Assembly: GCA_964455675.1 (NCBI GenBank)
Contig: CAYVYK010000014.1
Coordinates: forward strand, 1 to 38,571
DNA: 38,571 nucleotides
Origin: an uncultured Methanosarcinales archaeon
Lineage (GTDB): Archaea; Nanobdellota; Nanobdellia; Woesearchaeales; CAYVYK01
Reading direction: 5' to 3'
The notes beneath the pieces are model-generated. The model was not told the DNA's origin. It saw nothing but the letters and a program-made list of their open reading frames with translations, and did not search any database. Below are positions 1-37,112 of the stretch, in pieces. Made by a program: the position numbers and the translations under genes. Position 1 is the first letter of the stretch. Each line of letters starts with the position of its first letter.

Positions 1-3000
1 CACCACGCTTGAGTTTTCTCCAAAGTCCGTGTCATTGTTGAAGTGCATCAGCACCTGCAGGTTTCTCGCAAGGTCTCCAAATCCCGGATCGAGTTCGCCA
101 TCGCTCGTCACCGCCCATCCGATGATTTGCGCGTTTGTCCTGTTATACCAGGAAACGTTTACCCCTCCAATGCCTTCTGTTCCATTTGTTGCGTTTACTT
201 CAACATACCATTTTCTTGTGAGTGTTGACGAAAGGAAGCTAGCGTTCTTGTACGTCGCGTTGATGAACGTGATGTTGTTGCTATTGGAAGCGTTAACGCT
301 GAATGCTTGCGAGTTGTTGATGTATTGGTCCACGAAAATATTGTGGTGACTTGTGTCAAAAGAGATACCATTTTGTACGGTGTGGTTGATTCTGTTGTTG
401 TAGAGGCGGTTCCTGCTGGCGTATATGAGCCATATGCATCCGTAATATTGTGTGGGTGATGTGCAGTTGTGGATGATATTGTTTGCGATGAGATTGTTCG
501 TGTTGCTGTATATGTAGATACCCATGGATGCGTTGTCGATACTGTTGTTTGCGATCGTTGAAAAATTTGATGACCAACTGAGTGTGATTGCTGTGCCTGA
601 TGTATCGATGATATTGTTGTTACTGATCGTTGTATTCTTGGAGTAAGTTACGGCAATTCCTTGATGTGATAAGTCATTATGGACGATGGTAGAATTTGAT
701 GAAGTTGTGAGTACGATCCCATTGCCACTATAGGCAACGCCAGTTCGTGGGATACTGAGTGTGTTATTGTAAATGCGCGTGAATTGAGACTGGCTCGCCG
801 AGATTCCTGCCGATGCCCTGACTGTATTGTTCCTGATTGTCAGGTTCTTGCCGCCTACTACCGCCACAGCGTACCCGGTGTCACTTAGCTTGTTTTGTAG
901 GACAGAGTTGTTGCGGGTATTGAAAAGATAGATATGGTATCCATAATCGGGGATTCCCGCGTAGAAAACGGACGCGTTTGCGATAATGTTGTTCTTGATG
1001 GTGCTTGTGTTTGTGCTTGGAAGGTAGAGGATGTACGCACCCGAAAGTCCATCGATGTTGATGTTCGTGATTCCCGCGAGATTCTTCATCGTGTTGCGGG
1101 TTATCGTGATATTCCTTCCGTACTCGATGATGGCGCCATATTTGATTTTGCAGGAGTCTCCTTCAAGGTCGCACGAAAAGTTACTGAAGTCATGGTTGCT
1201 GATGTTATTCCTGTCGATCGTGGTGTTCCTTCCGCTGTAGACTCTGAGTTGGTATCCATCGAGTGAGTTGTTCGAATTCATCCACCATGTGTTGTTGTAG
1301 TACAGGTTGTCCTTGCACTCGTAGTCCAGCGTTCCGTTCGCGTTCTTCGTGATGCTGTTGTTCGCGATGATGGAATAATTGCTCGCGAGGATGTATATTC
1401 CCTTCTTAAGTGTCCTGTTCACGCGGTTGTCATCAATCGTGAGGTTGTTCGTTCGTACGGCGTAGATTCCTACAGTGGTGCTTCGTGTAACGGTATTATT
1501 GATGATCTTGCTCTTGAGTGATCGGTCGATGGATATCCCGTAGCTTCCGTTCATGACGAAGTTATGGCTTACGGTTGTATTTGGGGTGATGCTAACACTT
1601 ATGGTCGAGCTGATTGCTGTCTGGTTGAGCGTGTTGTGAATGAGAGTAATACTGCGTCCATAGGACGTGGACAGTGCAGAGGTTGTATTACGTATGGTGT
1701 TATGGTCTGCCTTCGTCTGTGAGCTTTCGGCAATGAATACCCCCAAGAATCCAGCTCCGATCGTGTTATTGTATACTCTGCTGCGGTTTGATTTTGAGAG
1801 GTATATTGCGGCAATACCACCACTATCATACACCCTTATACTGTGCCCGCTGATCGTGGTATTTTTCTGGTCGCTATAGATTCCATATCCGGCAGGAGCG
1901 TAAATGGAATACCCTGCTCCTTTGAATGTAATGTTTTCCGCTTGTATTCTGAAGCAGTAGCCTGATCCAGAATAGTTGATGTTCTTCTTGAGCACGTACG
2001 TTCTGTCCGCGATGGTAAGGTTCGTGCAGTTGTACACATTCGTGATGTTGGTCGCTTTGTAGTCCGAGAATCCGGTGACGTTGAACCTGAAGTATCCGGT
2101 GGAGAAGCTGATGTTCTTGCATTCTTTGCAGTCGCTGTATCCTCCGTTCATGATCCGGTCGACGATTGCTTTGGGATAGATCCATCCGGTGCCCACCTTG
2201 AGGGTTACGTTCGCTCGCTCTGATGTAAACCCAGGATCAAGCGTGGTGTTGACGCGTGCCCGATTCGTGCTGAACTGTATCGTTTTTGAGAGGTTGCTTC
2301 CGTTGACTTTAAGGCTTGTGAGGAAGTGGATAGTTCCGAGTGCCGATGTGATCTTGAGCGTTCCGGAATCGATCCTGTATTTCACGACGCTGTTGTTGTA
2401 GATATAATAATCTGCGATGTCGCTTCCGCTGACGGTGTTGTTCGTGACGTTGTGGAAGGTGCCGCCGATCACGTGGATTCCATATGTGGAGCTGTCAGTG
2501 ATCGTGTTGTTTTTTATTCTGCAATAACTAGTGCCCTCCTTGATCAGGATGCCGGTAGCGGCCATGTCGATCGTGTTGTTTGCGATCTTCACTTTGGCTG
2601 AGCTGATGTTTATTGCGGTTCCAGCTCTGTTCATGTTGAAGATGTTTTTTGAAACGGTAATGTTTGATCCTCCTGTTGAGTAGAATCCAGACCTGGTGCT
2701 TCCGTTTGACGTGATGTTTGAGTTTCGTAGGGTGGTTCCTTCTCCTTCGTTGTAGATGGCATCCACGCTCTTGTTGAACGTGATGTTGCATCGATCGATG
2801 AGGGTATTGTAGCACAGTGATGCAATGTAGATCGCGTTTTGTGCTGTTGTCGGCGAATTGAACCTGTTCCTCGTGATATAGTTGGCGTTGCTCGTGGTGG
2901 TGATATAGATATGGGATAGTATGTTGCTAAAGAAATCATTGTTGATGATGCTTGTGCCTTTGCTCGAGGCTAAATAGACTCCGTAGTTATTGTTCTTGAT

Positions 3001-6000
3001 AGTGTTGTCCTGGATCTTGACGTACGCGGTGCTCGCAAGGTTTATTCCTTGGGTCGCTGTTGTGTCATAGATCGTGCAGTTCGTGATCGTTCCTGTCTTG
3101 AGGTTCGTGAGGTAGATGGCAGCTCCGCCTGTCCCGCCTTGGGCGAAGCAGTTTGAGATGTTGACTTGTGATGCTGATATCGATATTCCAGTGCCTGCGG
3201 CTTGCAGTATTGATACGTTCACTCCACGGATTTTTGTTCCGTTTGATGCTGATGCGACATAAATTCCTGCCGTTACTGAGTTAATTATCGTTCCTCCCTT
3301 GATCGTCGTGTTGCGCGCTGCTGAGACATAGACGCCGTACGTTCCTGCATTGATGTAGTTGTTCGATACGTTGTTTCGGTGCTCGCTTGTGCTGATATAC
3401 ACGCCGGAGTTTGCGATGCCTGTCAGGGTGTTGTTCCTGATATAGTTATCCGTTGATGATCCTGGAAAATATACCCCGTGGTACGCTGCCTGGACTTTAT
3501 TGTTGCTGAAGTTGCTCGCGTCACCATTATTCATCTCTATTCCGTATCCTCCGGTAGAGGTGCTCGTCGTGATGTCGCAGTTTTTTACCGTGATGTTTTG
3601 GACATTGAGTCCGTAGACTCCTGTATCAGTTTCTCCCGGTGCGTAGATGTACACTCCGTCGATCACGTTTCCGGAGGATGACATGTAGATTTGGTCTGCG
3701 GTGCTGTTGTACATCCTTCCTCCCTGGACGTAGTTATTGATTCCTTGCAGCAGCACGCCGTATGTGGCGAGTCGTGCCGTGTTGTTGATGAACTGGTTGT
3801 TCTTTCCGGATGTTTGGAACGCGTTCCCTGATCGGAGTATGGTGTTGTTGGTAACGACGCTGTTGTTTGATGCTGATAGTGATATTCCGTTCGTTGTTGC
3901 GTTTCGTATCGTGTTGTTGCGGATAGTATTGAGGCGGCTTATTGTGCTGAGGATGCCGGTGTGCGTTGATGCGTGGAAGCTGCTGTTCTTGATCTCGTTG
4001 TTTGACCCTCTGTAGATGTACACTCCGTACGCGCCGTGGTATGTTGTGATGTTATGGATGCGGCTGTAATTGGAGTTGTTGATGTACACTGCCCAGTTTG
4101 TGCACGATGCGCATGCTCTGTTGATCTTGCAGTTCTTGATCGTTGCGTTGTTGACATTGATGTAGACGCCTGCCTTGCCGGTATCATCTGATGTAATCCA
4201 ATGCCCGTGACAGTCGAGTGTGATGTTTGCCGCGCTGATGTTGATGCAGTGGCTCGATAGGGCGTTGTTCGTGATGTCTGCCGTCACCGTGTAGCTCGTG
4301 AGCGCTGTAGTGAGCGGCCTGCACGTGCTGACCGACGTACCTGTTTCCACCTTAATCTGTCGTACTTCTGTCTGGTTTTTGTTCCCGAACGAGTCAGCGC
4401 TGTGTCCTTGGACGTTGTATGTTTTGTCCGGGAGGTTCCTGTATGTTGCATGGTATTGATAGCGTGACGCGTTGTAGAGTGATAGTACTTCCGCAGCGCT
4501 GAGGCTTCTGTTGAATATGATGACTTCATCGATGCTTCCGTTGAAGTCATTCGTATGGTATTCGTATGTCCCCCTTCCGATAAGGAGTCGATATGTGGTT
4601 GCGGAGATGTTTCCCGTTGCGGCTCCGGCGTATTGCTGGCTGCCATTGAGATACCCGGTGAGTTGTGTTCCATTGTATGTCATGACGACGTGGCACCACT
4701 GCCCGACTGGGCATGTTCCTGTAGTCTCTGGATGGTAAGTCGTTGTTGTCGTTGTAAGGACAAGTTCTGCCTGATTTCTGATCGCTGCTCCTCCAAAGTC
4801 AATGCGATAAACCCCTTTTGATATCATGTATTGCGATGCTGTTGGCATTTTGTTGAGTTTTGCCCAGAGGGAGATTGTCATCGAGCTTCCGACGAGATCA
4901 AGCGCGTCCGTGTCGTTGATGGCAACGTAGCTGCTCGTGTTGAACGTGAATGCGTCTCCGAATTTTCCAGAGTTCGTCTGGTTCGCCCAACCTTTCTTTG
5001 TTCCGTTGTGGCGGTAGCCGCTGAGGTCCGTGGGGTTTCCGTACGCGTCAACGTCGTCCATCCTCATCCAGAGCACGACATCGTTGTTCAGTCGTGCGAA
5101 CGTATAGTGTAGCGAGGATTCCGTGGTGGAAATGTTGACGTTCAGGGTGCTCGTGGATATTCCGGTGTTGTTTCCAGGTGTCGGGGCTACAAATGAGATC
5201 TTTGGTCCTATCGTGTCCAGTCCGAACTTCATGAACACGTAGTCCGTGTAGAGTGAATGGTGGATGAGTGGCGGTGAGTGCTCGGTGAAGTATCCGCGCG
5301 CGGCAAACTCAAGGTCGTCATACCCTGTTGCGTTGAAGATAACTTCGTATTCTTCTCCTGGCTGTATGGCGAGATAGTCGTTGTCCTGCCAGATGAGTGG
5401 CCGGACGTTTCCGTCCGTGACACGTACTGGCAGATTGATCGTTCCAGCTGCGTTCAGCATGTGGAGTGATCGCGCGTTCATGAGGCGTGCAGATAATCCT
5501 TTGGTATCTCCTGTAAAGTATGTGGCGAGTGGCTCATGTTGGTAGGCAAGGAGTTGCGCAAGATTCTGCAGGGTGTTTGGCTGCATGTATGATCCCATGT
5601 CCGAGAATTCCAGTCGTGGCATCAGGTCCGTGTTTCGGGATGCTTCCCTTGTGAGGTTTTTCACGTCGTCTTCTCCAAGGATGAGCATGCTCGCGACGTC
5701 CCCTGCTTCTGTCAGCCCGATGCTCGCGAGGTCTTCACGCGCGGCATGCATGCGTGCGTTGAGCGTTTCCATGCGGACGGATAGCGGCTTTGGCGTTCCG
5801 ATGAGGATGAGGAAGTGTGTTTGCCGCTGGTTGTATGTCCATACTGTGGTATGCGGATACTCTGCGGCAAAGCTTGCGATGAGTGTGCGTAGGTCCGCGA
5901 ATGACAGTCCTCCGATCGGCACCCATGCTGCCGCGATTCCGTCCGGTGTGAGCCGTTCTTTCATGGTATGGAAGTAGTCTTGGCTGTACAAACTTGGGTT

Positions 6001-9000
6001 TCCTTTGTATTTGAGGTTCGTAACATCTGTGACGATGACATCATACTGTTTTGGCGTTGTCTGGAAATAGTGCCTCGCGTCGTCAATGATGAGGGTAAAC
6101 TTTGGATTGGAGAGCGTGTCTTTGCCTAGGTCTGGAAAGAACGCGCTTGCCCTTACAACTGCTTCCTCGATCTCGATGGCATCCACACTTACGCCGTGCG
6201 TAAGCATGCTCTGGCTCGTTCCCCCTGTTCCATATCCGACGGTTGCGACGCTCTCTGGCCGCGCGGATAGGAGGAGTGGTAGGTGCGCGAGCATTTTTGC
6301 GTCGATCACGAGTTCTTCGTCCGACCGTGCGACGGTTTGACTGTCGATGTTGAGTTTCCGCTCTGTTGTTCCGCGGTGCATGAACTCGCTCACCGTGACT
6401 GTACCCGTGAGTCCTTCCTCGTAGAAGAGGATTCTTTCATGGTCCTTGTAGTAGTGGTTGCCCGCGGTTCCAGCGATGATTCCTGCGATGATCACGCAAA
6501 GTGCAATGGCGAGTGCTCCCGTGCGTAGCATGCGTGCCGTGGACAGGAGGACGTATCCTCCTGCGGCGATGATGAGGAATATCATGAGGACTGTTGTGTT
6601 CTTGATGCCAAGGGTTGTGGTGAGCACAAATCCTGTGATGATGCTGCCCGTGATCATGCCTAGCGTGTTTGCGAGGTACGCCTTCCCGCTTTTTTGCCCT
6701 ATTGCGTCTTTCTCTTGTGCGTAGAGTTCGAGTGCGAGCGGGAACATGATCCCCATGAGTATTGCCGGGATGTATGCGAGTGCAAAACCGATGAGTGATG
6801 CGGTGATCACTCCGTCTGTTGGAAGTATTGCGCCAAGCTGCGCGTAGACCTGGAGGAGGACTGCGCTTAGGATTGCGAGCGCAAGCGCTGCCGTGCCAAA
6901 CACGAGTGCAGGTTTCTGTATCTTGCTTCGCGATAGGAGTGCACTTCCGCTCATCATGCCTAGGAGCATTCCAGCGAGGATGAGTGTGTACGAGAGTGTT
7001 GTTGTGAGGCCGTAGCTTGAGAGTGTTCGTGTCCAGAGGAGTTCAAGGCTGATGCTTGTCATTCCGGTGATGAAGAGCACACCAAGCATGTCCTTCCTCG
7101 TTCTGGTTTTTTGTTCAACCACTGTCGGTCCTGCAGCGCTTGGCATTCCTCGCGCGACGAGGAAAATGAGGATATTGATCGCGACTGCGATCCCAAGTGT
7201 TAGTGTGATGCCAAGGAACCTGATGAGGATGATGCCCGTGAGCAGCGACCCTGCGAATGCGCCAAGCGTGTTGACATAATATATTCGTGAGAACTCCCGG
7301 ACGTTTTGCCTGACAACATATTTTGTGATGATTGGGATAGTCCCTCCGATGCAGATGCATGGTATGAGAATGATTATCCCGCTGATCGCCATTCTGATGA
7401 TTGTGAGGAGTGCGAAGCTGCTCGTTGCGGCCTGTGCGTAGAATCGCTCAAACGGCCAGATGCTGATAACAAGGTACGACAGCGCTGAACTGATGCCTAT
7501 CGCAAGTTCGATGAACGCGTATGTTTTCAGGGTGTTCGGGCTTCGCTCTGTTATTTTTCCAAAGATGTAGCTGCCGAGCCCCAGGCCGAGCATGAATACT
7601 GCAATCACGGTCGCTACTGCGGCGCTGCTTGTCCCAAACTGGAGCGACAGTAGTCGTATCCACAGGAGCTGGTAGATGAGTGCTGCTCCTCCTGAGAGGA
7701 AGATGAGGTAGTGTATTCGCGGTATTGCAGCGAGCGCGTCCATCCCTTTGTGTCGAACAACGAATACGCATAGGATGATGAGTACGATGATGGCAAGGAT
7801 AATAAACTCTGTTGGGAAAGATGTTTCTTCCCTCACGGTTGCCTTGAGATAGACTTGGTCGATGTATGCTGTCTCGTTGAGCTCTTCTTTGAGCATGATT
7901 CTGATCGTTCCGTTCACGACGTCCACTGAGTCTGTGATATCAACGAATGATGTGTATTCCTGTTCTTTGCTTCCTGCTCCCGCGATGAAGTCTGAGATGA
8001 AGGAGTAAAGTCCGTCCTTGTAGGTATAGAGGAATGGTGAGTACTGGCATGCGCACTGCCGTGCTGTCCCTCGTGCGTACGTTGCGCAGTCGTTTTGCCC
8101 GTCCTGGTGGTAATAGCATGTCCCGCCGGTTGTCGCGCTTGCGTATGGTCCTGTCGCAGCTTGTCCTGAGCATCCATATGTCATATACCAGTGATTGCAT
8201 GTCGCACAATTGACAGGATCGTTCGTCCAGTCGCATGTTCCGTCCTGTACTCCACCGTGCGTGGCGCACAGGGCGGTGCACGATGACGTTGAGCTGTACC
8301 AGCAGTAGTTCGTGTTCCACCATCCCCCGCATGCCTTCTGGCTCGCGACGCGCATAGCGACTGTTTTTGTTGTTTGGTTGATGTAGTCCTGGACGTTGCT
8401 CGTTACGATGACGTTAATGGTTTGATCCGAACCTATTGGGTTGCCATACACTGATACCCATTTCCTTGCCGCGTAGCTGTAGAGGCTGATATTTGTATAG
8501 AATCCATTTGACGTTTCTCCGTACCCCTCCCACGTGATGTTGATGCTTCCTGGTGTACTGACGAGTGGATCGCGCGTGAGGTTGAAGATGAAGAGGTGCT
8601 GGTCATAATCGTACGCACCTGCTTTATAGGTGACAAAGTAGTCATTGTCGCTTTTATTGAGCTGTTTCATCGTTGTTCCGTTCACTGCGCTCCAGCCCGC
8701 CCAAGGGCTTGGATTCAGTGTTGTTGCTGCGTAGTACCCGCTCATGTTCGCGATCGTATAGTTGCTTGGGTCGACGATGTAGTCAAAGCGCAGGCTTCCT
8801 CCAAGGACGTGGAGATCGAATGTGTCTTCTTCTCCTGCGAGGTCGTTAAGATATCTCGTGTTCCTGCTATTGTTCGTTATGTTGTCAAAGCTTACGATGA
8901 CGTCAGTTCCGTTGTTCTGGTACACGTAGATGCTTGGGCTTCCGTTCATGATCCATGGATAGAGTGTGATGTCATTCACTGCCGTGAGGTTTTTCTTGAA

Positions 9001-12000
9001 TTCCACGCGCACGTAGTGTCCGGAAGGTATTGTCTCGCTCCACACATCATCAAGTGCGCTCACTTCAGGATAGATGTCTGAGACGAGTTCTCTGTTTTCG
9101 TCAAGGTGCGACGCCCTGCTGATCTCGATGATGATCTGGTATGTTTGGTTTGAGAGGTGTGGCACGACCCAGGTGATGGTGTCTCCCTTGCCGTTCAAAT
9201 CAGTGTCTGCGATCGAGAAGTCGAGCACTTCAAGGCGGTATTGTGGTTGCTCGGGTGTGCTGATGTCCTCGATGCTGCCGTAGCCGTTGGGAATGTCCAG
9301 ATTATCCGCGCTCTGTCCTTCGGTAAGAAGGTATTTGTATTCAATATCATCAATGATCCAGTAGAGCCGTGCTTGTGACTCGATGGGGAGTGCCGCGCTT
9401 ACCGTCACCTCATCGTATTCAACGTCGGAATGGACGACTACTTCCTTCTGGGTGGTGCTGACTGCTTCCTCAACAATTTCGGGTCCTGGGGTTGTGTACT
9501 CAAGTTCAACTTCTTCATAGATGCCTGGCACGAGGACGTAATTCTCTTCTGGCTCGGCGACTGCCGGATCGGACACGGCGTATCCGGTGATTCCTCCCGT
9601 GAGCCATCGCGTAATCCACTTGAGCATGCGTGTGATAATGCCTTCTCCTTCAGCGCTGTTCACGGCAAATGCTGTTATTCCTGGCGTGGTTCGCTCGGCA
9701 AGTTCTGGGTCGATCTTGGCGAGGAGTGCTTCTTTTGTTCGCAGACTACGTTCTGCCCGGACGAGCCGGTGTTTGATTTTTTTGCCGGTCTGTGCATCGC
9801 TCGAGGCAAGATCTTCCTGCGCCTGCGCGATTTCCTCTCGGAGTTCTTGGATTTTTTCCTCTATGTCCGCGGCTCGCAGAGTTCGTTGTGGCTTGTTGCG
9901 GTTTTCTTCTCTTTGCTGGAGGAATCTGGCAAGCCGTTGCGTTGCGAGTATTTCGTCGTTGACTGCCGCGGGTGTAGCCTCAGGTGTTGGTTCTGCCATT
10001 TCCTCATTGTTATCCTCCGGTGTCTGCTCAATCGTGGATTCCGTTGGTGCTTTAGTCTCTTCTTCATCGAGCTGTTCTTCCATCTCGATGATGGTGACAT
10101 CTGCGGTGTCAAGGACGGCTATCTCCTCTGGTGGTGGTACATTCGTTTCAGACGGGACATCTGGAATCTCCGTGGGAATGTTGATTGGGTTCTCTGTTGG
10201 CGATGGGTTTGCAAGTGGAGTCTCGGTTGGGCTTTCAGTAGATGTTGGAGTGGCCGTGATCTCAGGTATTATCGGCTCGTCGAGTAAGCTATCAGCAAGT
10301 TTGATCTCGCGTCCTTCTTGTTCGAGGTATGCTTCTGTGATGGGTTCTGAGTTTGCCCGCACCCGGATGTCATACGCGCTCTTGGGTATGGGTATTCTGG
10401 TCGTGTCTGCCGCGTTTGCGACCCGTATCCTCCTAACCCACGTCGTTGGTTTCCCCACTTGGATTTGAGTGGTGTTCGTGAGGAGGACGGTGACTGTTTC
10501 GCTGAGGTTTTCGGTAATATTGCTCGTGATATTAGACGTGATATTCGTCGTGATATTGGTAGTAATGTTTGTAGTAATGTTTATGGTGATGTTCGTAAGG
10601 TTGAGGGAAAGGTTGCTCGTGTAATTCAGGCTAAGATTACCCGTAATGTTCGCGGTGATATTGCTCGTAATATTTGTGGTTATATTGCCCGTAATATTCA
10701 TGCTGATATTGTTGGTAATATTGGCTGTTATGTTTGATGTGATATTCGTCGTAGTGTTCGTATCTGTCGTGACGTTTGATGTGATGTTCATGGATATGTT
10801 GGTGGTGATATCGCTCGTGATGTTGCTCGTTACGTTTAATGTCGTATTCGTGATGTTTGTGCTATCGTTCGTATCAGGGATTTCTGGGAGTACAACGAGT
10901 GTTGCGTCCGTTGAATTCGTTGCGAGTTCGTCCGATGCATAGAACGTGATGCTCGCGTTTCCAAAAAAGCCTGCGCTAGTTATGGTAACGATACTGTTGA
11001 GTATTCCAACATTCATCCCTTCAGGTTGCGTGACAAGGTATGTGATATTGTCCCCATCCTCATCGTATGCGTACGAGGCAAGGTCCACAATGGTTTCACC
11101 GCTGATCGTGATCGGTGGAACAGGCAGCCATTTTGGTGCGCGGTTGCCTTGGGCGAGTGTGTAACTGATACCTGTGATCGTGATGCTGCTTCCCTCTTCA
11201 GTTTCGACGACGAGTGAGTATGGTCCTGCGGTGTGTACATGACAGCTCTCTGCGCAGTGGCTGGCAAATTCCAGTTCTTCCGGCGCTGCTTCATCGGCGG
11301 TATCATCCGGTTCTGGTGTTTCTTCAGGTGTTGGTTGGATTGTCGCTTCTGGTGTTTCGGCGGGTACTGGTGTCTCTGCTGGTGTTTCTTCCGGTGTTGG
11401 TTCTGGTGTCTCTTCGATCGATTCTTCTGGTTCTTCGAGGGTGTCGTCGACCTCTTCATCCGGTGTTGGTTCTGGTGTTTCTTCAGGTGATTCCTCAAGG
11501 GTGTCGTCAGTTTCATCTGTTGGGGTTTCTTCTTGTGTTGGTTCTGGTGTTTCTTCGATCCATTCTTCTGGTTCTTCATCTGTATCACTGGTTTCTTCCG
11601 GTGTCTCTTCGGGTGTTGGCGTCGCGCCTTTCTTTGTCTTTTTTGGTTTGACGGAGAGGAGTTGTACCGTGACGTCCGTGCTGTTCGTGCCGTCCTTGTC
11701 GCTTGCGTAGATCGTGATCGTTCGGTTGCCGCTCATGTTGTTTGGATTGCGTAGGCGCAGTCTGTTATAGAGGACGTCTACGTCAAGATCTTCTGCGCTC
11801 GTCGCAACGTACGTAATTTCGTCATGGTCTCGGTCGCGCCAGTACTTGGAGAGATTGATGGTCTTGTCTACGCCGTATTTTACTTTGATGAGGGGGAATT
11901 TCCTGAATCTTGGTGGTCGTGGTGGTTTGCTGTGGACGGCTAGCCCTGTGAGTCCTTCGATTCCTTCCTCTTCTGTTAGCATGCTTGTGTCAAGGATGAG

Positions 12001-12252
12001 TGTTTGTCCTTCCGCGTGCTTGAGGTACACACGTGCTTCTCCGCTGTATGTTCCGCTAATGCGCATGCTTGCAAGTTCTCCGCTGATAGCGAGCGCTTGC
12101 TCTCCTGCAGAGTCAAACGTGTACGTGACGTCCTGCGTATGGATTTCTTCGCTGATCGCGAGTCCCACGAGTTCTGGGCCGCTGTGGTAGAGTACCGCGA
12201 TGAACATTCCGACGAGGAGTCCGAGGATAAGGTAGCTCGGGAGTCTACGCAT
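1..12252 (-). CDS. Giant multidomain cell-surface/membrane protein (>=4084 aa, 3' end beyond the window): signal anchor, acidic linkers, NxT array, internal MFS-like/spermidine-synthase-like module, LamG and right-handed beta-helix (PbH1/NosD-like) domains
   Basis: Manual translation from ATG 12252 (MRRLPSYLILGLLVGMFIAVLY...) stays in one frame to base 1 (...LQVLMHFNNDTDFGENSSVV). The ORF track lists no minus-strand ORF in this frame across 1-12252, as expected for a frame with no stop inside the window. A purine-rich RBS-like stretch precedes the ATG, which overlaps the upstream gene's stop (ATGCGTAG). Confidence 0.93.
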   Translation of the reverse strand, partial: MRRLPSYLILGLLVGMFIAVLYHSGPELVGLAISEEIHTQDVTYTFDSAGEQALAISGELASMRISGTYSGEARVYLKHAEGQTLILDTSMLTEEEGIEGLTGLAVHSKPPRPPRFRKFPLIKVKYGVDKTINLSKYWRDRDHDEITYVATSAEDLDVDVLYNRLRLRNPNNMSGNRTITIYASDKDGTNSTDVTVQLLSVKPKKTKKGATPTPEETPEETSDTDEEPEEWIEETPEPTQEETPTDETDDTLEESPEETPEPTPDEEVDDTLEEPEESIEETPEPTPEETPAETPVPAETPEATIQPTPEETPEPDDTADEAAPEELEFASHCAESCHVHTAGPYSLVVETEEGSSITITGISYTLAQGNRAPKWLPVPPITISGETIVDLASYAYDEDGDNITYLVTQPEGMNVGILNSIVTITSAGFFGNASITFYASDELATNSTDATLVVLPEIPDTNDSTNITNTTLNVTSNITSDITTNISMNITSNVTTDTNTTTNITSNITANITNNISMNITGNITTNITSNITANITGNLSLNYTSNLSLNLTNITINITTNITTNITTNITSNITSNITENLSETVTVLLTNTTQIQVGKPTTWVRRIRVANAADTTRIPIPKSAYDIRVRANSEPITEAYLEQEGREIKLADSLLDEPIIPEITATPTSTESPTETPLANPSPTENPINIPTEIPDVPSETNVPPPEEIAVLDTADVTIIEMEEQLDEEETKAPTESTIEQTPEDNNEEMAEPTPEATPAAVNDEILATQRLARFLQQREENRNKPQRTLRAADIEEKIQELREEIAQAQEDLASSDAQTGKKIKHRLVRAERSLRTKEALLAKIDPELAERTTPGITAFAVNSAEGEGIITRMLKWITRWLTGGITGYAVSDPAVAEPEENYVLVPGIYEEVELEYTTPGPEIVEEAVSTTQKEVVVHSDVEYDEVTVSAALPIESQARLYWIIDDIEYKYLLTEGQSADNLDIPNGYGSIEDISTPEQPQYRLEVLDFSIADTDLNGKGDTITWVVPHLSNQTYQIIIEISRASHLDENRELVSDIYPEVSALDDVWSETIPSGHYVRVEFKKNLTAVNDITLYPWIMNGSPSIYVYQNNGTDVIVSFDNITNNSRNTRYLNDLAGEEDTFDLHVLGGSLRFDYIVDPSNYTIANMSGYYAATTLNPSPWAGWSAVNGTTMKQLNKSDNDYFVTYKAGAYDYDQHLFIFNLTRDPLVSTPGSINITWEGYGETSNGFYTNISLYSYAARKWVSVYGNPIGSDQTINVIVTSNVQDYINQTTKTVAMRVASQKACGGWWNTNYCWYSSTSSCTALCATHGGVQDGTCDWTNDPVNCATCNHWYMTYGCSGQAATGPYASATTGGTCYYHQDGQNDCATYARGTARQCACQYSPFLYTYKDGLYSFISDFIAGAGSKEQEYTSFVDITDSVDVVNGTIRIMLKEELNETAYIDQVYLKATVREETSFPTEFIILAIIVLIILCVFVVRHKGMDALAAIPRIHYLIFLSGGAALIYQLLWIRLLSLQFGTSSAAVATVIAVFMLGLGLGSYIFGKITERSPNTLKTYAFIELAIGISSALSYLVISIWPFERFYAQAATSSFALLTIIRMAISGIIILIPCICIGGTIPIITKYVVRQNVREFSRIYYVNTLGAFAGSLLTGIILIRFLGITLTLGIAVAINILIFLVARGMPSAAGPTVVEQKTRTRKDMLGVLFITGMTSISLELLWTRTLSSYGLTTTLSYTLILAGMLLGMMSGSALLSRSKIQKPALVFGTAALALAILSAVLLQVYAQLGAILPTDGVITASLIGFALAYIPAILMGIMFPLALELYAQEKDAIGQKSGKAYLANTLGMITGSIITGFVLTTTLGIKNTTVLMIFLIIAAGGYVLLSTARMLRTGALAIALCVIIAGIIAGTAGNHYYKDHERILFYEEGLTGTVTVSEFMHRGTTERKLNIDSQTVARSDEELVIDAKMLAHLPLLLSARPESVATVGYGTGGTSQSMLTHGVSVDAIEIEEAVVRASAFFPDLGKDTLSNPKFTLIIDDARHYFQTTPKQYDVIVTDVTNLKYKGNPSLYSQDYFHTMKERLTPDGIAAAWVPIGGLSFADLRTLIASFAAEYPHTTVWTYNQRQTHFLILIGTPKPLSVRMETLNARMHAAREDLASIGLTEAGDVASMLILGEDDVKNLTREASRNTDLMPRLEFSDMGSYMQPNTLQNLAQLLAYQHEPLATYFTGDTKGLSARLMNARSLHMLNAAGTINLPVRVTDGNVRPLIWQDNDYLAIQPGEEYEVIFNATGYDDLEFAARGYFTEHSPPLIHHSLYTDYVFMKFGLDTIGPKISFVAPTPGNNTGISTSTLNVNISTTESSLHYTFARLNNDVVLWMRMDDVDAYGNPTDLSGYRHNGTKKGWANQTNSGKFGDAFTFNTSSYVAINDTDALDLVGSSMTISLWAKLNKMPTASQYMISKGVYRIDFGGAAIRNQAELVLTTTTTTYHPETTGTCPVGQWCHVVMTYNGTQLTGYLNGSQQYAGAATGNISATTYRLLIGRGTYEYHTNDFNGSIDEVIIFNRSLSAAEVLSLYNASRYQYHATYRNLPDKTYNVQGHSADSFGNKNQTEVRQIKVETGTSVSTCRPLTTALTSYTVTADITNNALSSHCINISAANITLDCHGHWITSDDTGKAGVYINVNNATIKNCKINRACASCTNWAVYINNSNYSRIHNITTYHGAYGVYIYRGSNNEIKNSSFHASTHTGILSTISRLNTIRNNTIRNATTNGISLSASNNSVVTNNTILRSGNAFQTSGKNNQFINNTARLATYGVLLQGINNYVQGGRMYNSTADQIYMSSSGNVIDGVYIYAPGETDTGVYGLNVQNITVKNCDITTSTSTGGYGIEMNNGDASNFSNNKVQAAYHGVYFPGSSTDNYIRNNTLTGIANSGVYISTSEHRNNVSNNYINAGTYGVYVSAARNTTIKGGTIINSVTAGIYVASASNGTKIRGVNVSILQAAGTGISISASQVNISNCFAQGGTGGAAIYLTNLKTGTITNCTIYDTTATQGINLASTAYVKIQDNTIKNNNYGVYLASSKGTSIINNDFFSNILSHIYITTTSNANYITRNRFNSPTTAQNAIYIASLCYNTLIDRCNITFNKSVDAIYNEGEGTTLRNSNITSNGSTRSGFYSTGGSNITVSKNIFNMNRAGTAINISSAKVKIANNTIDMAATGILIKEGTSYCRIKNNTITDSSTYGIHVIGGTFHNVTNNTVSGSDIADYYIYNNSVVKYRIDSGTLKITSALGTIHFLTSLKVNGSNLSKTIQFSTNRARVNTTLDPGFTSERANVTLKVGTGWIYPKAIVDRIMNGGYSDCKECKNISFSTGYFRFNVTGFSDYKATNITNVYNCTNLTIADRTYVLKKNINYSGSGYCFRIQAENITFKGAGYSIYAPAGYGIYSDQKNTTISGHSIRVYDSGGIAAIYLSKSNRSRVYNNTIGAGFLGVFIAESSQTKADHNTIRNTTSALSTSYGRSITLIHNTLNQTAISSTISVSITPNTTVSHNFVMNGSYGISIDRSLKSKIINNTVTRSTTVGIYAVRTNNLTIDDNRVNRTLKKGIYILASNYSIIANNSITKNANGTLDYECKDNLYYNNTWWMNSNNSLDGYQLRVYSGRNTTIDRNNISNHDFSNFSCDLEGDSCKIKYGAIIEYGRNITITRNTMKNLAGITNINIDGLSGAYILYLPSTNTSTIKNNIIANASVFYAGIPDYGYHIYLFNTRNNSVLQNKLSDTGYAVAVVGGKNLTIRNNTVRASAGISASQSQFTRIYNNTLSIPRTGVAYSGNGIVLTTSSNSTIVHNDLSHQGIAVTYSKNTTISNNNIIDTSGTAITLSWSSNFSTIANNSIDNASMGIYIYSNTNNLIANNIIHNCTSPTQYYGCIWLIYASRNRLYNNRINHTVQNGISFDTSHHNIFVDQYINNSQAFSVNASNSNNITFINATYKNASFLSSTLTRKWYVEVNATNGTEGIGGVNVSWYNRTNAQIIGWAVTSDGELDPGFGDLARNLQVLMHFNNDTDFGENSSVV
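250..4320 (-). other. Two right-handed parallel beta-helix regions of the giant protein (approx. 4320-2400 and 2040-250), separated by a small domain ending FNVTGFSDY
   Basis: Recurrent Asn-ladder units such as YGVYI..SNNEIKN, GISLSASNSVVTNNTI and YGVYLASSKGTSIINN. Each helix opens with a typical cap (HCINISAANITLDCHG; YCFRIQAENITFKG). Confidence 0.85.
4470..5090 (-). other. LamG/concanavalin-A-like jellyroll domain of the giant protein; a second one appears to begin at 60-1
   Basis: LWMRMDD...DLSGYRHNGT...GKFGDAFTF...MTISLWAK...WCHVVMTYNG...YLNG...FNGSIDEVIIFNRSLSAAEV. Confidence 0.9.
5600..7809 (-). other. Internal polytopic membrane (MFS-like) plus spermidine-synthase-fold (class I SAM-binding) module of the giant protein
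   Basis: About 14 hydrophobic segments with family-typical repeats (FLSGGAALIYQLLWIRLL / FITGMTSISLELLWTRTL; LYVNTLGAFAGS / AYLANTLGMITGS). These are followed by LAHLPLLL, VGYGTGGT, AIEIEEAVV, IDDARHYF, YDVIVTD, LYSQDYF and LTPDGIAAAW. Confidence 0.9.
10501..10870 (-). repeat. Coding ~12-bp degenerate tandem repeat giving an (x-N-I-T)n array of N-glycosylation sequons
   Basis: Translates as ...TNITSNITANITNNISMNITGNITTNITSNITANITGNLSLNYTSNLSLNLTNITINITTNITTNITTNITSNITSNITENLS; about 30 N-x-S/T sequons in about 123 aa. Confidence 0.9.
11280..11625 (-). repeat. Coding low-complexity Glu/Thr/Pro-rich repeat linker (EETPEPTP); a second acidic linker lies at approx. 9960-10290
   Basis: Repeated + strand words ggttctggtgtttcttc; translation EETPEPTQEETP...EETPEPTPDEE...EETPEPTPEETP. 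Confidence 0.85.
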
Positions 12253-12736
12253 GCGTTTCCCCCCGTTTCTCGCTCGCTCGGTGCCACACTGTCCAGATTG
12301 TTCGGTCATCTCTGTGGAGTATTTTTCCGATTTTGGTGAACGTGTATCCTTGGCGCTCTTTGAGATCATAGACGATGGATTCCAGGATTGTGAGTCGTTC
12401 ATCTGTGAATGCTTCCATGGGGATGCTGTGTGCAAAGCTGATGTCAGAAAACTGTTCGGGTTGTTTTCGCGCAGCATTGCGGTACGTGATCCAGATGGTG
12501 CTCGTGTCGCGGTGCAGCAACCCCACAACTTCCTTGTTGCTCTTCTCTCGATTCTCGCGTAGATACTTCACGATTGCTTCAAAGCAGCTGAGTTTTCTAA
12601 TGAAGATGGAGCATGGCACGGCGTCCCTGCTTTTTCCCTCGAGGATATGGGTGATATCAGAATCCGTATAGTGGTAGACGTCCTTCAGGTGATGGATGAG
12701 CCGTTCGAGCTGTTTCGCCGTGCCTTCCTCTGCCAA
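12245..12736 (-). CDS. Duplicated helix-turn-helix putative transcriptional regulator, translationally coupled to the giant gene
   Basis: Two ~50-aa internal repeats: LSCFEAIVKYLRE...KEVVGLLHRDTSTIWITYRNA and LTILESIVYDLKE...TKIGKILHRDDRTIWTVWHRA. TTG start. The stop overlaps the giant gene's ATG by 8 bp. Confidence 0.8.
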   Translation of the reverse strand: MAEEGTAKQLERLIHHLKDVYHYTDSDITHILEGKSRDAVPCSIFIRKLSCFEAIVKYLRENREKSNKEVVGLLHRDTSTIWITYRNAARKQPEQFSDISFAHSIPMEAFTDERLTILESIVYDLKERQGYTFTKIGKILHRDDRTIWTVWHRASEKRGETHA

Positions 12737-19477: not shown

Positions 19478-22400
19478 ATGCGTACGATCTATTTCGTAGT
19501 GCTCGCATCGTTCGTACTAAGTGCGTGTATGACCGGTAACACGATTCGTGATGTGAGTATTTTTCATCGGCCTTTGGCAAGGCAACCTTTGGATAATGAT
19601 GCCTTTGAGACTGATGTCCTGGAGGATGATGCGCTCATTGGATATTGTTCTGATAGTGATGGCGAGAATGTTCATACCGCTGGTTTTGTTACGGATGAGG
19701 GTTCTGGATATACTGGTGGTCCTGACGTATGCCTAGATGAGGTCGTGCTGAAGGAAATGATATGCACCACGAATCATGCGGATTCGTTTACGTTTTCATG
19801 TTCTGATCTCATGGAGTATTGTGACGCTGGCCGATGTGTGCAGTGTTTAAATGACGTGCACTGTGGAAGTGGCGCGCGCTGTGTCAACAATGAGTGCGTG
19901 CACGTTCTGCCAATGACGACGGCGTCGCGTACGGAGTGTGTCGCGCCATGCGCCGTTTTTTTTGACACGATTGATGTCGCGGAGGGTGCGTGGAATCCTG
20001 CAGGTCCGGGACAGAATCCTGCGTGGTTTTCAGGTGTTGTTCAGGGTGAGCATTTCCAGGATTTGTTGTATGAGTGGGATTTTGGTGATCCGTCCTCGGG
20101 CGATTGGATTTATGGTGTTGAGGGCAGATCCAAGAATCATGCGGCGGGTCCGCTTGTGGCGCATGTATACGAGGTGCCCGGTATGTACACTGTCCTGCTC
20201 GACGTGAGGGATGCGTGGGGGGTGCATCACTATTTCCAGGATCTTGAGGTTCTTCCGTATCCCGGGAGTGGTTGGGAGCATACGTACTATGTTGCGGAGG
20301 ATGGAAACGATGCAAATGATGGTTCTTTGGAGCATCCTTGGCGTACTGTTGACCGGGCGTTTTCCATGGCTCTTCCAAGTACGAGGCTCCTCTTCAAGCG
20401 TGGTGATGAGTTTGCGGTAAACCAGGTTATTCGGACAACTGTTGACGGTCCTGTGCATGTTGACGCATACGGTGAGGGTAAGAAGCCCCATTTCATTGCA
20501 GGTCCTCTGTTTCATGAGAACGTGACGTATGACAGCATGTTCTATGTTCGGCATGATGATTGGTCGTTCATGAACCTTAATATCACCGGCGCCTGGAATG
20601 GTCTTGATTTGCTTGCTGGCGGCCCCATCATTAAGCCCATTGATTGGGCTAGGAATACCTTGATGTTTAAGGTGGATGCGGGCTGGTCTCGAAATGGTCT
20701 TGAGTCCTCCTTCAGTTCTTACACAACGATTTATGAGTGCACGAATGGTCCTACCGAGAGTGTAGGCTCGACGGTCTTTAATTCCCGTCATTCTGCGATT
20801 CTTGGCTCTCACTTCCATGATGCGAAAAGTTCCCATAATTTTTACACGCTATCGACGTTCAAGAATGTGTACTCGAATAATCTCATCGAGCGCGCTGGAG
20901 GTGGTCGTCACAACATTCGAATTTGCGGCGCTGACGCGGGGAATAACTTCATTGCAAAGTACAACGTGATCGCGGATAATATGATCAACGCTGGGACTTG
21001 GCTCTCACTCTATATATCCCCGAATGTGAATAACCTCCTGCAGGTCATGGAGGACACTCTGATCGAGCGCAATGTTGTCTATAATACTTCGCAGTACGCT
21101 CTCCTGATTGGTCCCGGAGTGGATGGTATCACGGTGCGAAACAACCTGATGGATGGTAGTGTATGGATGAAGAAGCGTGATGATGACATCCATCCGCTGA
21201 CGTTGGATCAGGAGGATGTTCTGATAGAGCATAATACGCTCCTCAAGACGAATCTTGAGGGTGTTTCTGTAATTGAGTTATTGAATCCTCTTGCAAAACG
21301 TATTTCCATCCGGAATAATATTCTGCACTCCGTGTTCCCTCACGGTGCTGCGCTTGTATATCATATTGCTGACTTTGAACTGCTAAATGAGGTAACAACA
21401 GACCATAATGTTCTGCATGTTCCGCATTCAGAGGATGTTGTCCGCTTCGCGTATGGTGAGTATAGTATGAACATGATGCAGTGGCAGGCGCTCGGACAGG
21501 ATTCCGATTCATTCGAAGCTGATCCATCGTATCTGCAGCCTGATTATGAGCATGTTCCTGACGGTAATTTCCGTCTGTTGTTCGGCTCCCCCGCGATTGA
21601 TGCTGGGTTGTCATCCCTCGATTACGATCTTGACAATTTCCCCCGTCCCTTTGACGGCGATGGTGATGGTATTCCACGCCCGGATAGTGGTGCCTTTGAG
21701 TATCATGGCTGTTCAATGGATGCCGCTTGCCCTAGCGATGTCGCATGTGTTGACTGGTCGTGTTTGGATTCCCGATGTGTGAGAACCGAGCTTGCCGGGG
21801 TTTGTGATGATGGTATTGACTGCACAATGGATGATACCTGTGTAGGTGGAGTATGCGTCGGTACTCCGTTTGATGGCGCTTGCGCGGATGTTCCGGTTTG
21901 CGCGGAAAAAACGTGTGGCGCGATGGGTTGCACGTATGGTTCTTGTGATTCCTCGCTCGTCTTCGCTTGGTCTGCGGATGATGATCCGTCTGACGGTTCT
22001 GTTCCTGATCTCTCCCCATTCCATAATGATGCGAGTTGTGTTTCCTGTCCCGCGCGCATCGTTGATGGTGATCGTACTGTGTATGCGTTCGATGGTGCGG
22101 GTTCGTTTTTGTCCGTTCCCGATAATCCCTCGCTTGACATGACGGATGCTGTTTCCATTGTGCTTTGGGCGAAAACTGCGCAGAGTTATACTGACCCGTA
22201 TCCTAGTCTCGTCGCCAAGGGTGATGCTGGGTATTCGCTTAGGTTCTTTGGTTTGGCTCCTGCTCCAAGCGGTGCTGAATTGTACACCTGGGCGGGCGGC
22301 GTGAACACTCGGAGTGGGCTTTTTGCTCCTGTTGGGGAATGGAACTTTCTTGCAGTTGTCTTTCATCAGGGTCTTGTTGATTTCTACGTGAATGACGAGT

Positions 22401-22567
22401 CCGTCCTGAGTCGGCCTGGGGGTGGGAGCATTTCCGCAAATAACATCCCCCTTACGATTGCAAGGAGCACGGGCGAGCGTGAGTATGACGGTTTGATCGA
22501 TGACTTGTACGTGTTTAATCGCGCTCTTTCGCCTGCGGAGATCGAAGGTCTTCGCGCCGTGCAGTAA
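19478..22567 (+). CDS. Secreted/lipoprotein-like surface protein: Cys-rich repeats, PKD domain, right-handed beta-helix, C-terminal LamG domain
   Basis: Signal ending VLSAC; CSDSDG repeat; YEWDFGD...AHVYEVPGMYTV (PKD); YYVAEDGNDANDGSLEHPWRT beta-helix start; SPAIDAG...PDSGAFEY; CDDGIDCTMDDTC; YDGLIDDLYVFNRALSPAEI (LamG). Confidence 0.9.
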   Translation: MRTIYFVVLASFVLSACMTGNTIRDVSIFHRPLARQPLDNDAFETDVLEDDALIGYCSDSDGENVHTAGFVTDEGSGYTGGPDVCLDEVVLKEMICTTNHADSFTFSCSDLMEYCDAGRCVQCLNDVHCGSGARCVNNECVHVLPMTTASRTECVAPCAVFFDTIDVAEGAWNPAGPGQNPAWFSGVVQGEHFQDLLYEWDFGDPSSGDWIYGVEGRSKNHAAGPLVAHVYEVPGMYTVLLDVRDAWGVHHYFQDLEVLPYPGSGWEHTYYVAEDGNDANDGSLEHPWRTVDRAFSMALPSTRLLFKRGDEFAVNQVIRTTVDGPVHVDAYGEGKKPHFIAGPLFHENVTYDSMFYVRHDDWSFMNLNITGAWNGLDLLAGGPIIKPIDWARNTLMFKVDAGWSRNGLESSFSSYTTIYECTNGPTESVGSTVFNSRHSAILGSHFHDAKSSHNFYTLSTFKNVYSNNLIERAGGGRHNIRICGADAGNNFIAKYNVIADNMINAGTWLSLYISPNVNNLLQVMEDTLIERNVVYNTSQYALLIGPGVDGITVRNNLMDGSVWMKKRDDDIHPLTLDQEDVLIEHNTLLKTNLEGVSVIELLNPLAKRISIRNNILHSVFPHGAALVYHIADFELLNEVTTDHNVLHVPHSEDVVRFAYGEYSMNMMQWQALGQDSDSFEADPSYLQPDYEHVPDGNFRLLFGSPAIDAGLSSLDYDLDNFPRPFDGDGDGIPRPDSGAFEYHGCSMDAACPSDVACVDWSCLDSRCVRTELAGVCDDGIDCTMDDTCVGGVCVGTPFDGACADVPVCAEKTCGAMGCTYGSCDSSLVFAWSADDDPSDGSVPDLSPFHNDASCVSCPARIVDGDRTVYAFDGAGSFLSVPDNPSLDMTDAVSIVLWAKTAQSYTDPYPSLVAKGDAGYSLRFFGLAPAPSGAELYTWAGGVNTRSGLFAPVGEWNFLAVVFHQGLVDFYVNDESVLSRPGGGSISANNIPLTIARSTGEREYDGLIDDLYVFNRALSPAEIEGLRAVQ

Positions 22568-29968: not shown

Positions 29969-30053
29969 AGAGTGAAAAAGATATTAATACTATGAATTCC
30001 AAAATACGATAAAACTCGATTATGACGATCATATTATGCTTGAGGTGAACAAA

Positions 30054-36092: not shown

Positions 36093-37112
36093 TCAGATAC
36101 CCTTTACAGTCTCATCAATCCGAGCAACTCCCTTGTCCGCATCCACATGAACGATTGTCCCGCTTTTGAATGTTTTGGATGCATTTTTCGTTCCAATAAT
36201 GCATGGCTTCTTGAGCTCTCGTGAGATAATCGCCGCATGCGATAGCACTCCTCCTTCATCTGCAATAATCGCTACCGCACGCTTGATGAGTGGTGCCATA
36301 TCTGGATGTGTTGATGGGGCTACCAGTACAAATCCGTCCGGTGCGTCCTTTCGTTCGAGAATGTTGAGGACGTGTCCGCGCGCGGTTCCGCCGTATGCCA
36401 CGTGTCCGTGTACTTCTTTTCCAATTGGGGTTTCAAGCAGTGCCTGAACCGCCCGAAGCGTTCCACCGTCGGTAAAGACGCTCTCTTCGGCTCCTTCTCG
36501 CACGTACACGTAGCCATACATGCGGATCGAAACATCCATTCGTTTCCCTTTCATGAATCCTTCAAGTTCGTTGAGTGTCATATTGCGCAGCATTCCTTTT
36601 GTGATCTTGTTCTTCTGTTCTATCCGCTCGAGTTCCGCAAGGAGTGTGCGTTCGACTTTGGTGTAGTAGCTTGCCACTTCCTGGCGTTCTTTGGCTAGCC
36701 GCGCAATCATGTCCGGAGACAATTTTCCCTCAGTATCTGCGTATCTCCAGAAGCAGTTGTACGTTCCAATGCATGCCATGTACGTTGCGTAGTCTTCAAG
36801 CACGTGCTGGATGATGGGTTTTGGTATCTTGCTCACGCGCTGGAACGCCTGCCACGCCCTTCGAAGCACGTCTTCCGCTTTTCCGTCGCTGATGAGTTGT
36901 GCGGTTTTCTCGCGAATTTCTTCCTCATTCATCAGCGTATGAAAATACTTATCCTTTCCGTATGCCGCAAGCGCTCGGTACGTGAATCCCGCGATTTTCT
37001 GCATGTGCACGGAATACCCTTCGCCGATCGCGGACAGCGTCACAAGGGAGAGCTCTCTCTGCGTGGCAGGTGTTAGGCTGTGCGTTTGGATGAGTTCAAG
37101 AACTGGTTTCAT
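36093..37112 (-). CDS. PEP-utilising enzyme mobile (swivelling phospho-His) domain protein with an uncharacterised helical N-terminus
   Basis: VLVAPSTHPD...AIIADEGGVLSHAAIISRELKKPCIIGTKNA...VDADKG. Confidence 0.92.
   Translation of the reverse strand: MKPVLELIQTHSLTPATQRELSLVTLSAIGEGYSVHMQKIAGFTYRALAAYGKDKYFHTLMNEEEIREKTAQLISDGKAEDVLRRAWQAFQRVSKIPKPIIQHVLEDYATYMACIGTYNCFWRYADTEGKLSPDMIARLAKERQEVASYYTKVERTLLAELERIEQKNKITKGMLRNMTLNELEGFMKGKRMDVSIRMYGYVYVREGAEESVFTDGGTLRAVQALLETPIGKEVHGHVAYGGTARGHVLNILERKDAPDGFVLVAPSTHPDMAPLIKRAVAIIADEGGVLSHAAIISRELKKPCIIGTKNASKTFKSGTIVHVDADKGVARIDETVKGI

Follow-up and report, generated by a model that had tools for sequence, protein, structure and literature searches.

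Here we report the domain architecture of a giant cell-surface protein encoded on the reverse strand of a 38,571-nucleotide stretch of archaeal DNA (hereafter the window), which comprises the first 38571 bases of contig C14 in the source genome (G000). The protein belongs to a small-genome (DPANN-type) archaeon and most probably carries a domain insertion on two levels. At the outer level, a putative galactose-binding-like jelly roll (about residues 1262-1396) would be closed by the strand SLYTDYVFM (residues 2425-2433) only after about 1027 inserted residues. At the inner level, this insert would consist of a Cys-rich domain and a beta domain of ~130 amino acids (aa), named SPFLY here, in which the tip of a hairpin, following AYIDQVYLKA, holds a whole protein of the MFS/spermidine-synthase type. 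The nesting of a membrane protein in the window is real and rare. The parts of the nested region are listed below in the order in which the chain runs through them; TM denotes a transmembrane helix.

8341..8745, (-): N-terminal part of the putative outer jelly roll, about residues 1262-1396, SDNDY...NITWEGYG...VAMRVAS
8041..8340, (-): Cys-rich domain, first element of the outer insert, residues 1397-1496, which aligns to the Cys-rich stretch of the homologues P0140 and P0160
7828..8040, (-): N-terminal half of SPFLY, residues 1497-1567, with AYIDQVYLKA as its final long strand
7756..7827, (-): linker and adaptor helix TM0 (residues 1573-1591), predicted to run from outside to inside; the following loop holds 3 Lys/Arg residues
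6463..7755, (-): MFS-like membrane domain of 13 predicted helices (6+6+1), residues 1592-2022, recognized by NF037959, by an internal repeat in BLAST and by the alternation of Lys plus Arg
5491..6462, (-): SpeE-fold domain and the C-terminal subdomain of the family, residues 2023-2346, with PF01564 at 2077-2199; probably outside the membrane
5440..5490, (-): linker by which the chain regains the hairpin, residues 2347-2363; it separates the region aligned to stand-alone proteins from the match of the C-terminal half
5269..5439, (-): C-terminal half of SPFLY, residues 2364-2420, INLPVRVTDGNVRPLIWQDNDYLAIQPGEEYEVIF...EFAARGYFTEH
5224..5268, (-): strand proposed to close the outer jelly roll, residues 2421-2435, LIHHSLYTDYVFMKF, in which SLYTDYVFM is 2425-2433

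The SPFLY domain and the membrane protein inserted in it

At the level of homology, SPFLY is interrupted by the membrane module, and both flanks of the module are its halves. With the contiguous domain of the homologue P0122 as query (local phmmer), window residues 1497-1567 matched domain positions 1-70 (E 1.3e-22) and residues 2369-2432 matched positions 76-135 (E 1e-8). A profile built from short stand-alone homologues alone, with close relatives excluded, aligned its positions 26-95 and 99-157 at the same two sites (independent E-values 4.6e-16 and 0.009). Chance is very far from accounting for such a resemblance. Three proteins were matched by a 74-aa query taken from the N-terminal flank, each of them with the sequence of the C-terminal flank within ~15 residues after the match. 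The contiguous domain (part of P0122) was further searched against a library of 1.84 billion proteins, where E<=0.001 was reached by 134 representatives, 1e-10 by 49 and 1e-30 by 28. SPFLY is contiguous in 109 of the 137 proteins examined, contains extra residues at one shared loop in nine, and is represented by fragments or by a weak second half in 19; in proteins of 138-190 aa it is a complete stand-alone fold. The earlier note had proposed an enzyme module inside a domain that in turn lies in a second one, and the inner nesting is backed by the contiguous homologues, by a second protein split in the same way and by stand-alone homologues of the module. The consensus that the note had given for the interrupted domain (CPxLY...EExxExxYxDxxxL...DDxYxxMxxGDxxxLxF...GY) agrees with that of our homologue alignment A3.

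By alignment, the guest corresponds to a complete 'fused MFS/spermidine synthase' protein plus one extra predicted helix, TM0. The NCBIfam model of that name, NF037959, recognizes the module with a score of 95.4 bits (cut-off 40). With residues 1497-2433 as query, 326 proteins were retrieved at E<=0.001, the best 120 of which are 778-871 aa long, share 41-45% identity with the query and cover 78-82% of it; in these 120 stand-alone homologues no SPFLY half was found (best E 3.3). Residues 14-773 of P0045 (799 aa, Wenzhouxiangella sp. XN24) align to window residues 1609-2346, P0034 does likewise, and the same-order archaeon G280 encodes a stand-alone 779-aa form that is 44% identical to the window module. 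Stand-alone proteins of NF037959, such as P0045 and the G280 product, have 43-45% identity to the module over about 750 residues and have in common with it the 6+6+1 helix plan, the alternation of Lys and Arg, and the motifs GYGTG and TDVTNLKYK. They differ in being free, whereas the modules of the window and of the second nested protein carry the extra TM0 and have both ends held by halves of an extracellular domain. The window module contains 14 hydrophobic segments in a simple hydropathy scan. Its Spermine_synth match (Pfam) reaches E 2.3e-15; the MFS signal comes from the internal repeat found by BLAST, and the MFS_1 model scores E 0.068, or 1e-4 in the second nested protein, both under the cut-off.

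This second protein, P0153 (MFC1851086.1, 1081 aa, named fused MFS/spermidine synthase at NCBI), is assigned to a candidate division CSSED10-310 bacterium. Its order is signal peptide, N-terminal half of SPFLY, TM0, 13-helix MFS domain, SpeE-like domain and C-terminal half of SPFLY, and it is 40% identical to the window protein over 985 aa. The nested unit is identical in plan to that of the window; P0153 differs in being compact, with its own signal peptide and without the outer jelly roll, the closing strand and the giant flanks. Its SPFLY half belongs to a Ser-type 'SDF(I/L)AGATSK' subfamily although the protein is assigned to a bacterium; the same subfamily occurs in cassettes of the same-order archaeal genomes and in the Pacearchaeota-named cluster examined. 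Either an exchange of genes across the archaeal-bacterial divide or a mistake in binning might lie behind this combination.

The SPFLY hairpin is an insertion hot spot. In other homologues, soluble inserts of 20-250 aa occupy the same loop, none of them with TM segments, and in the AlphaFold model of the homologue P0140 the insertion site is the loop at the tip of a hairpin that strands E300-312 and E318-326 form. The bacterial proteins P0232, P0241, P0245, P0250, P0229, P0182 and P0243 share one such guest in the hairpin, a soluble domain rich in beta structure, ~160-250 aa long and with ...(I/V)DY(V/I)x(V/I)D(Y/T)S at its end; no Pfam match was found for it.

Further cases with a membrane guest were sought in several collections. 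No match crossed the junction in 40 relatives. Among the same-order genomes (400 plus the source), 24 of 401 gave some match and the junction was crossed only in the source genome G000. NF037959 matched in 28 of 401 genomes of the phylum, within a giant frame only in the source genome and in frames of <=847 aa in all others. Each of these two 401-genome tallies takes in one unpublished genome (G207 for the order, G209 for the phylum), of which no sequence was used. A contig scan of genomes returned two contiguous relatives only and no further nested case, and neither did two metagenome scans, one with the window junction and one with the P0153 junction, reveal another.

SPFLY itself is a widespread beta-sandwich family, with 134 representative clusters in archaea and bacteria and one loop that repeatedly takes inserts. 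No significant Pfam or NCBIfam family was found for it or for the Cys-rich domain, and in the ESM Atlas the two gave only 'hypothetical protein' clusters at 0.82-0.90 and no model. The SPFLY profile found no relative among PDB sequences (best E 0.42). A Foldseek comparison of the three-domain homologue model with the PDB returned mostly two-jelly-roll proteins with poor template-modelling scores, and the fold of SPFLY alone was not identified by it. In bacteria the domain ends a variety of proteins, with LamG/DUF2341, beta-helix, Fib_succ_major, caspase and WG repeats, STAND and CHAT, protein kinase, ankyrin, or LRR and PD40 in front of it.

Discontinuous domains that arise by insertion are known, two-level nesting included; in the usual case a self-contained guest with neighbouring ends breaks the parent at a surface loop. 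The window protein resembles these classical examples in that an autonomous guest splits a parent domain at a loop on its surface. It differs in that the guest is a 14-helix integral membrane protein placed in a soluble extracellular beta-hairpin, where an adaptor helix is needed. Where membrane proteins take part in domain insertion, a soluble domain in a membrane-protein loop is the usual case, which is reversed here. Domain insertion is a known evolutionary route, and a complete polytopic membrane guest in a soluble extracellular hairpin is an unusual outcome of it. In a literature search with narrow terms we found no description of such a guest or of the SPFLY family.

The outer jelly roll and its probable closing strand

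The earlier note had also suggested that a beta-sandwich upstream of the insert lacks its last strand, and that this strand appears only downstream. This suggestion is supported by the co-occurrence of motifs among homologues and by the model of P0140 with its structural matches; on these grounds, we consider it quite probable that the jelly roll 1262-1396 is closed by SLYTDYV after the insert. The insert itself stands, with a different extent: it starts right after VAMRVAS, at about residue 1397 and not at S1497, and comprises ~1027 aa instead of 928, because the Cys-rich domain of ~100 aa (1397-1496) belongs to it.

Co-occurrence was scored in 135 SPFLY homologues with phmmer for the outer N-terminal part and with the motif [STN][LVIM][HYF]TDY[VIL] for the closing strand; as the homologues are mutually related, the counts are given without a statistical test. 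The N-terminal part lies upstream of SPFLY in 25 of the 135. Both elements are present in 17 and neither in 107. The N-terminal part stands alone in eight, seven of which have a variant strand (SLYTDF, SLYTNW) and one of which is truncated, and the motif stands alone in three, two N-truncated fragments and P0122. In P0131 (1041) and P0128 (1626) the motif follows only after ~600 further residues, behind extra domains that come after SPFLY. Closer to the source organism, the same-order archaea G274 and G186 and an Aenigmatarchaeota genome have a contiguous SPFLY followed by SLYTDY[VI].

The homologue P0140 (794 aa) has exactly the domain order of the window protein without the membrane module, and its residues 30-430 were modeled with AlphaFold from 25 aligned sequences. 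The model has a mean predicted local distance difference test score (pLDDT) of 76.9 and a predicted template-modelling score of 0.54. In blocks of 10 residues, pLDDT is mostly 84-95 in the outer N-terminal part, mostly >90 in SPFLY and about 31-66 in the Cys-rich part (<50 for residues 178-237). The outer N-terminal part forms seven strands, beginning with E3-8, and the closing strand, E385-395 at pLDDT of about 72-82, is the eighth. When the model was compared with 48,161 PDB chains, for which only the first and the last aligned residues are reported, single-domain jelly rolls (CBM32, CBM29, F-lectin, IFT25 and GH2 N-domains) matched with Z 7-9 over ~110-130 residues in a range from 1-2 to 393-397; therefore, a single jelly roll is aligned over a span that takes in both the first and the last strand. 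With Z 12.1, a chain of the phage phi812 baseplate scored higher; the jelly-roll Z values are middling, and such values are common with the search used.

Several points weigh against the two-level architecture. In P0122 the closing motif is present, yet an outer N-terminal part could not be detected. Since the structure search gives end points only, the jelly-roll matches could in principle run through the SPFLY part instead of the outer N-terminal part. The closing strand is modeled with moderate pLDDT, and both closures in the window rest on homology, the outer one being judged on the model of a homologue. These points could be accommodated by a single level of nesting, in which residues 1262-1396 are complete alone and SLYTDYVFM is a linker, the first strand of the next immunoglobulin-like domain or an accessory strand of SPFLY. 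We regard this alternative as distinctly improbable, since the motif is missing in 107 SPFLY proteins that have no outer N-terminal part and occurs, as such or as a variant, in 24 of the 25 that have it, the remaining one being truncated. The displacement of the motif behind extra domains in P0131 and P0128 also speaks against a single level, as do the completeness of SPFLY in proteins of 138-190 aa and the count of seven strands in the modeled N-terminal part, which leaves the closing strand as the eighth.

Also on the negative side of the balance, the nested proteins found in total are two, the window protein and P0153. Trees of the module show a tight bacterial clade, beyond which the window sequence, P0153, G280 and P0051 form long unresolved branches. 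Grouping the two nested proteins in one clade was not rejected by the approximately unbiased test (p-AU 0.53 for the module and 0.79 for the N-terminal half of SPFLY, which alone was used for the SPFLY tree because hmmalign could not place the C-terminal halves across the insert), so that a single origin appears possible.

The slot between the outer N-terminal part and SPFLY, which holds the Cys-rich domain in the window, takes varied guests (RCC1 propellers, Fib_succ_major, Cys-rich) in P0123, P0125, P0126, P0130, P0133, P0143 and P0147. In homologues the whole cassette can recur two or three times per protein.

Predicted topology and candidate function of the nested unit

The orientation of predicted helices can be read from the positive-inside rule. 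In the window module, the loops after TM0, 2, ..., 12 contain 3, 3, 4, 5, 3, 3 and 2 Lys plus Arg residues, and the loops after TM1, 3, ..., 11 contain 0, 1, 1, 1, 0 and 1; the alternation is seen likewise in P0153 and in three stand-alone proteins. According to this pattern, a stand-alone protein of the family would start on the inside, cross the membrane with 13 helices and expose its C-terminal SpeE-like domain on the outer side. TM0, to which nothing is aligned in stand-alone homologues and which has a counterpart in P0153, would lead the chain from outside to inside, making 14 helices in all. An extracellular hairpin would be able to hold a 13-helix protein only because this extra helix first takes the chain inside. 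Both ends of the insert would then emerge on the outer face, so that the SPFLY halves could pair, and the giant protein would be pinned to the membrane in the middle of its chain, with SPFLY resting on the membrane surface. As both SPFLY halves belong to one extracellular domain and have to come together on the same face of the membrane, we infer that the SpeE-like domain faces outward and is extracytoplasmic. The single extra helix shows how a membrane guest is made to fit an extracellular hairpin, and the nesting limits, without recourse to topology predictors, the orientations open to the 'fused MFS/spermidine synthase' family.

Two points weigh against this topology. A simple hydropathy scan, and not a dedicated predictor, was used to assign the TM segments. 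N-x-S/T sequons are scarce in the SpeE-like part, with one in 346 aa (0.29 per 100) vs 3.7 and 5.6 per 100 in the flanking ectodomains, and so low a density is unexpected for an exposed archaeal domain. In sequon composition the module looks 'bacterial', yet its GC content at third codon positions (GC3) equals that of the rest of the gene.

The chemistry of the SpeE-like domain can be approached through its alignment to 1UIR and 3ANX, in which the window has VGYGTGGT vs VGGGEGAT and DVTNL vs DLTDP. The acidic residue of the GxG(D/E)G motif is not present in the window, where Thr stands in its place, and SpeE equivalog models score 68-111 bits vs cut-offs of 250-472. GYGTG in place of GGGEG, together with the sub-cut-off SpeE scores, speaks against a classical spermidine synthase (polyamine aminopropyltransferase). 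In a study of a fungal protein, spermidine synthases are described as needing Asp or Glu in GxG(D/E)G for decarboxylated S-adenosylmethionine (SAM), and the missing acidic residue is used there to assign the fungal seven-helix NHMT as a methyltransferase of secreted proteins and not as a spermidine synthase (PMC10349129). As the SpeE-like domain of the window lacks the acid of GxG(D/E)G, a methyltransferase-like or binding role is favoured over a polyamine synthase; from its motifs, the domain is more likely of a SAM-type methyltransferase-like or binding kind. NHMT (Aspergillus nidulans AN4663), as presented there, resembles the nested unit in having a polytopic membrane domain fused to an SpdS-like domain of seven beta strands without the Asp or Glu of GxG(D/E)G, and it acts on secreted proteins (PMC10349129). 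It differs in that its seven helices are unrelated to MFS, that it is located in the fungal endoplasmic reticulum, and that it is not inserted in another domain (PMC10349129).

A further proposal, possible and rather unlikely, is that the nested unit works as a surface machine and not just as a passive anchor. SPFLY would clamp both ends of an outward-facing SAM-type methyltransferase-like enzyme, the transporter-like domain would supply the cofactor across the membrane, and the unit, as part of a host-dependent archaeon's giant adhesin, would modify that adhesin, the cell envelope or the surface of a partner cell at the point of contact. If this were true, the nesting would be the first natural 'topology reporter' that the large MFS/SpeE-like family works outside the cytoplasm. 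The compact P0153 is a protein suited to probing how SAM-type chemistry could run there.

Giant surface proteins tied to the membrane have been described in other DPANN archaea. The nanohaloarchaeal 'SPEARE' proteins, as described, have a signal peptide, arrays of immunoglobulin-like domains, a transmembrane domain and a cytosolic VirB4-like ATPase (PMC10266531). As described, they share with the window protein a very large adhesin-like ectodomain of a small-genome archaeon tied to the membrane, and differ in that the anchor in the window is an internal transporter-like enzyme module nested in the ectodomain (PMC10266531).

Self-processing, gene integrity and genome setting

The borders of the insert had been likened in the earlier note to those of inteins, with a Cys or Ser nucleophile at the start and H-H-S echoing H-N-S at the end. 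In this scheme, the inserts would be removed or the chain cut by intein-like or other self-processing, with the Cys/Ser of SPFLY as the nucleophile and H-N-S before LYTDY as the cleavage site. Part of the border pattern does recur among homologues: the first SPFLY residue is Cys in 71 copies and Ser in 50, together 121 of 125, and the tripeptide before LYTDY (n=24) is HNS in 12 and HNT in three. These 15 of 24 make H-N-S/T a frequent ending and not a required one, as the other nine are HRS (four) and HKS, RGS, GNS, HHT and HHS (one each), with Arg, Lys, His or Gly standing in the place of Asn in eight of them; the window has H-H-S, not H-N-S. The presumed nucleophile is also wrongly placed, as the outer insert begins at about residue 1397 (QKACGG...) and the conserved Cys/Ser, which opens SPFLY, comes 100 aa later. 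As an all-beta sandwich, SPFLY is also the last domain of many proteins, which stop right after GYY and have no +1 nucleophile. No Hint or intein family of Pfam was detected at E<=0.1 in the whole protein or at E<=10 in residues 1397-2443, HMMER filters dropping most very weak matches. To our knowledge, there is no precedent for the excision of a 14-helix membrane module. The likeness to inteins thus consists of a domain that starts with Cys or Ser and of H-N-S/T, which frequently precedes the strand with which the host domain continues; a Hint signal, correctly placed borders and a conserved Asn are what sets inteins apart. Self-processing is highly improbable, and self-splicing as an element of the nested architecture is not supported.

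In the copies scored, Pro, an aromatic and a hydrophobic residue and then Tyr or Phe invariably come after the first SPFLY residue. The interchange of Cys and Ser at the first position argues against a disulfide role.

Least credible of all is an artefact, either a chimera made in assembly or a surface-protein gene in decay, into which a membrane-protein gene has landed: the assembly has 25 contigs and the gene is cut by a contig end, yet the frame is open for 4176 codons through both junctions, GC3 is even throughout the gene (module 0.615-0.618, downstream part 0.627), and the architecture including TM0 is retained at 40% identity in P0153. In addition, separate contigs from two runs of one study of a sludge metagenome cover 5100-7512 and 7488-8129 in one run, and 5100-7514 and 7514-8253 in the other. 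They cover 5100-8129 and 5100-8253 without joints or loose ends, so that both junctions are bridged. In favour of an artefact, both runs come from one study, which may be the source sample.

The nested region lies in an open frame. On the reverse strand, window positions 1-12528 translate into 4176 residues with no stop, and the frame extends past the contig start, so that >4176 codons are open. A signal anchor occupies residues 96-114, just after the likely start at M93. The source genome has 1.72 Mb in its 25 contigs and is 99% complete, and the neighbours of the giant gene are archaeal (Nre, diphthamide synthesis, DUF7343). Among named proteins, one from a Candidatus Pacearchaeota archaeon comes closest to the flanking domains. 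Pfam recognizes Spermine_synth at residues 2077-2199, Laminin_G_3 at 2530-2681 and beta-helix repeats further on. The gene and its downstream context are as follows.

1..12252, (-): giant surface-protein gene, >4084 codons from the likely start M93 (ATG 12250-12252), 3' end cut by the contig start
4486..4941, (-): Laminin_G_3 domain downstream, residues 2530-2681 (Pfam); the insert-less homologues P0140 and P0142 have a matching order
1..4281, (-): repeats of the right-handed beta-helix type, starting near residue 2750 and reaching the contig end (Pfam)

The sequence strings quoted in the earlier note were all recovered at the places it had given them by a script search of the translation.

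8635-8652, (-): SDNDYF, residues 1293-1298
8341-8361, (-): VAMRVAS, residues 1390-1396
8017-8040, (-): SPFLYTYK, residues 1497-1504
7837-7863, (-): IDQVYLKAT, residues 1556-1564
5389-5412, (-): GNVRPLIW, residues 2373-2380
5287-5310, (-): EFAARGYF, residues 2407-2414
5230-5268, (-): LIHHSLYTDYVFM, residues 2421-2433

Within the giant gene, window positions ~10400-10750 (-), corresponding to residues ~600-710, encode a run of near-repeats, NITSNIT(T/A)NIT..., that consists nearly entirely of N-x-S/T sequons. Two further large predicted surface proteins are encoded in the window, at 19478-22567 (+) with PKD, beta-helix and Laminin_G_3, and at 30036-33026 (+) with CARDB. Beyond the window, contig C13 of the genome contains an open frame of 11,421 codons, and apart from these two giant frames the genome has at least 13 others of >1,500 codons. 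Two neighbouring frames in the window, at 36093-38571 (-), both have a PEP-utilizers mobile domain at their end, so that the pair may represent paralogues or a PEP-utilising enzyme that was duplicated or split.

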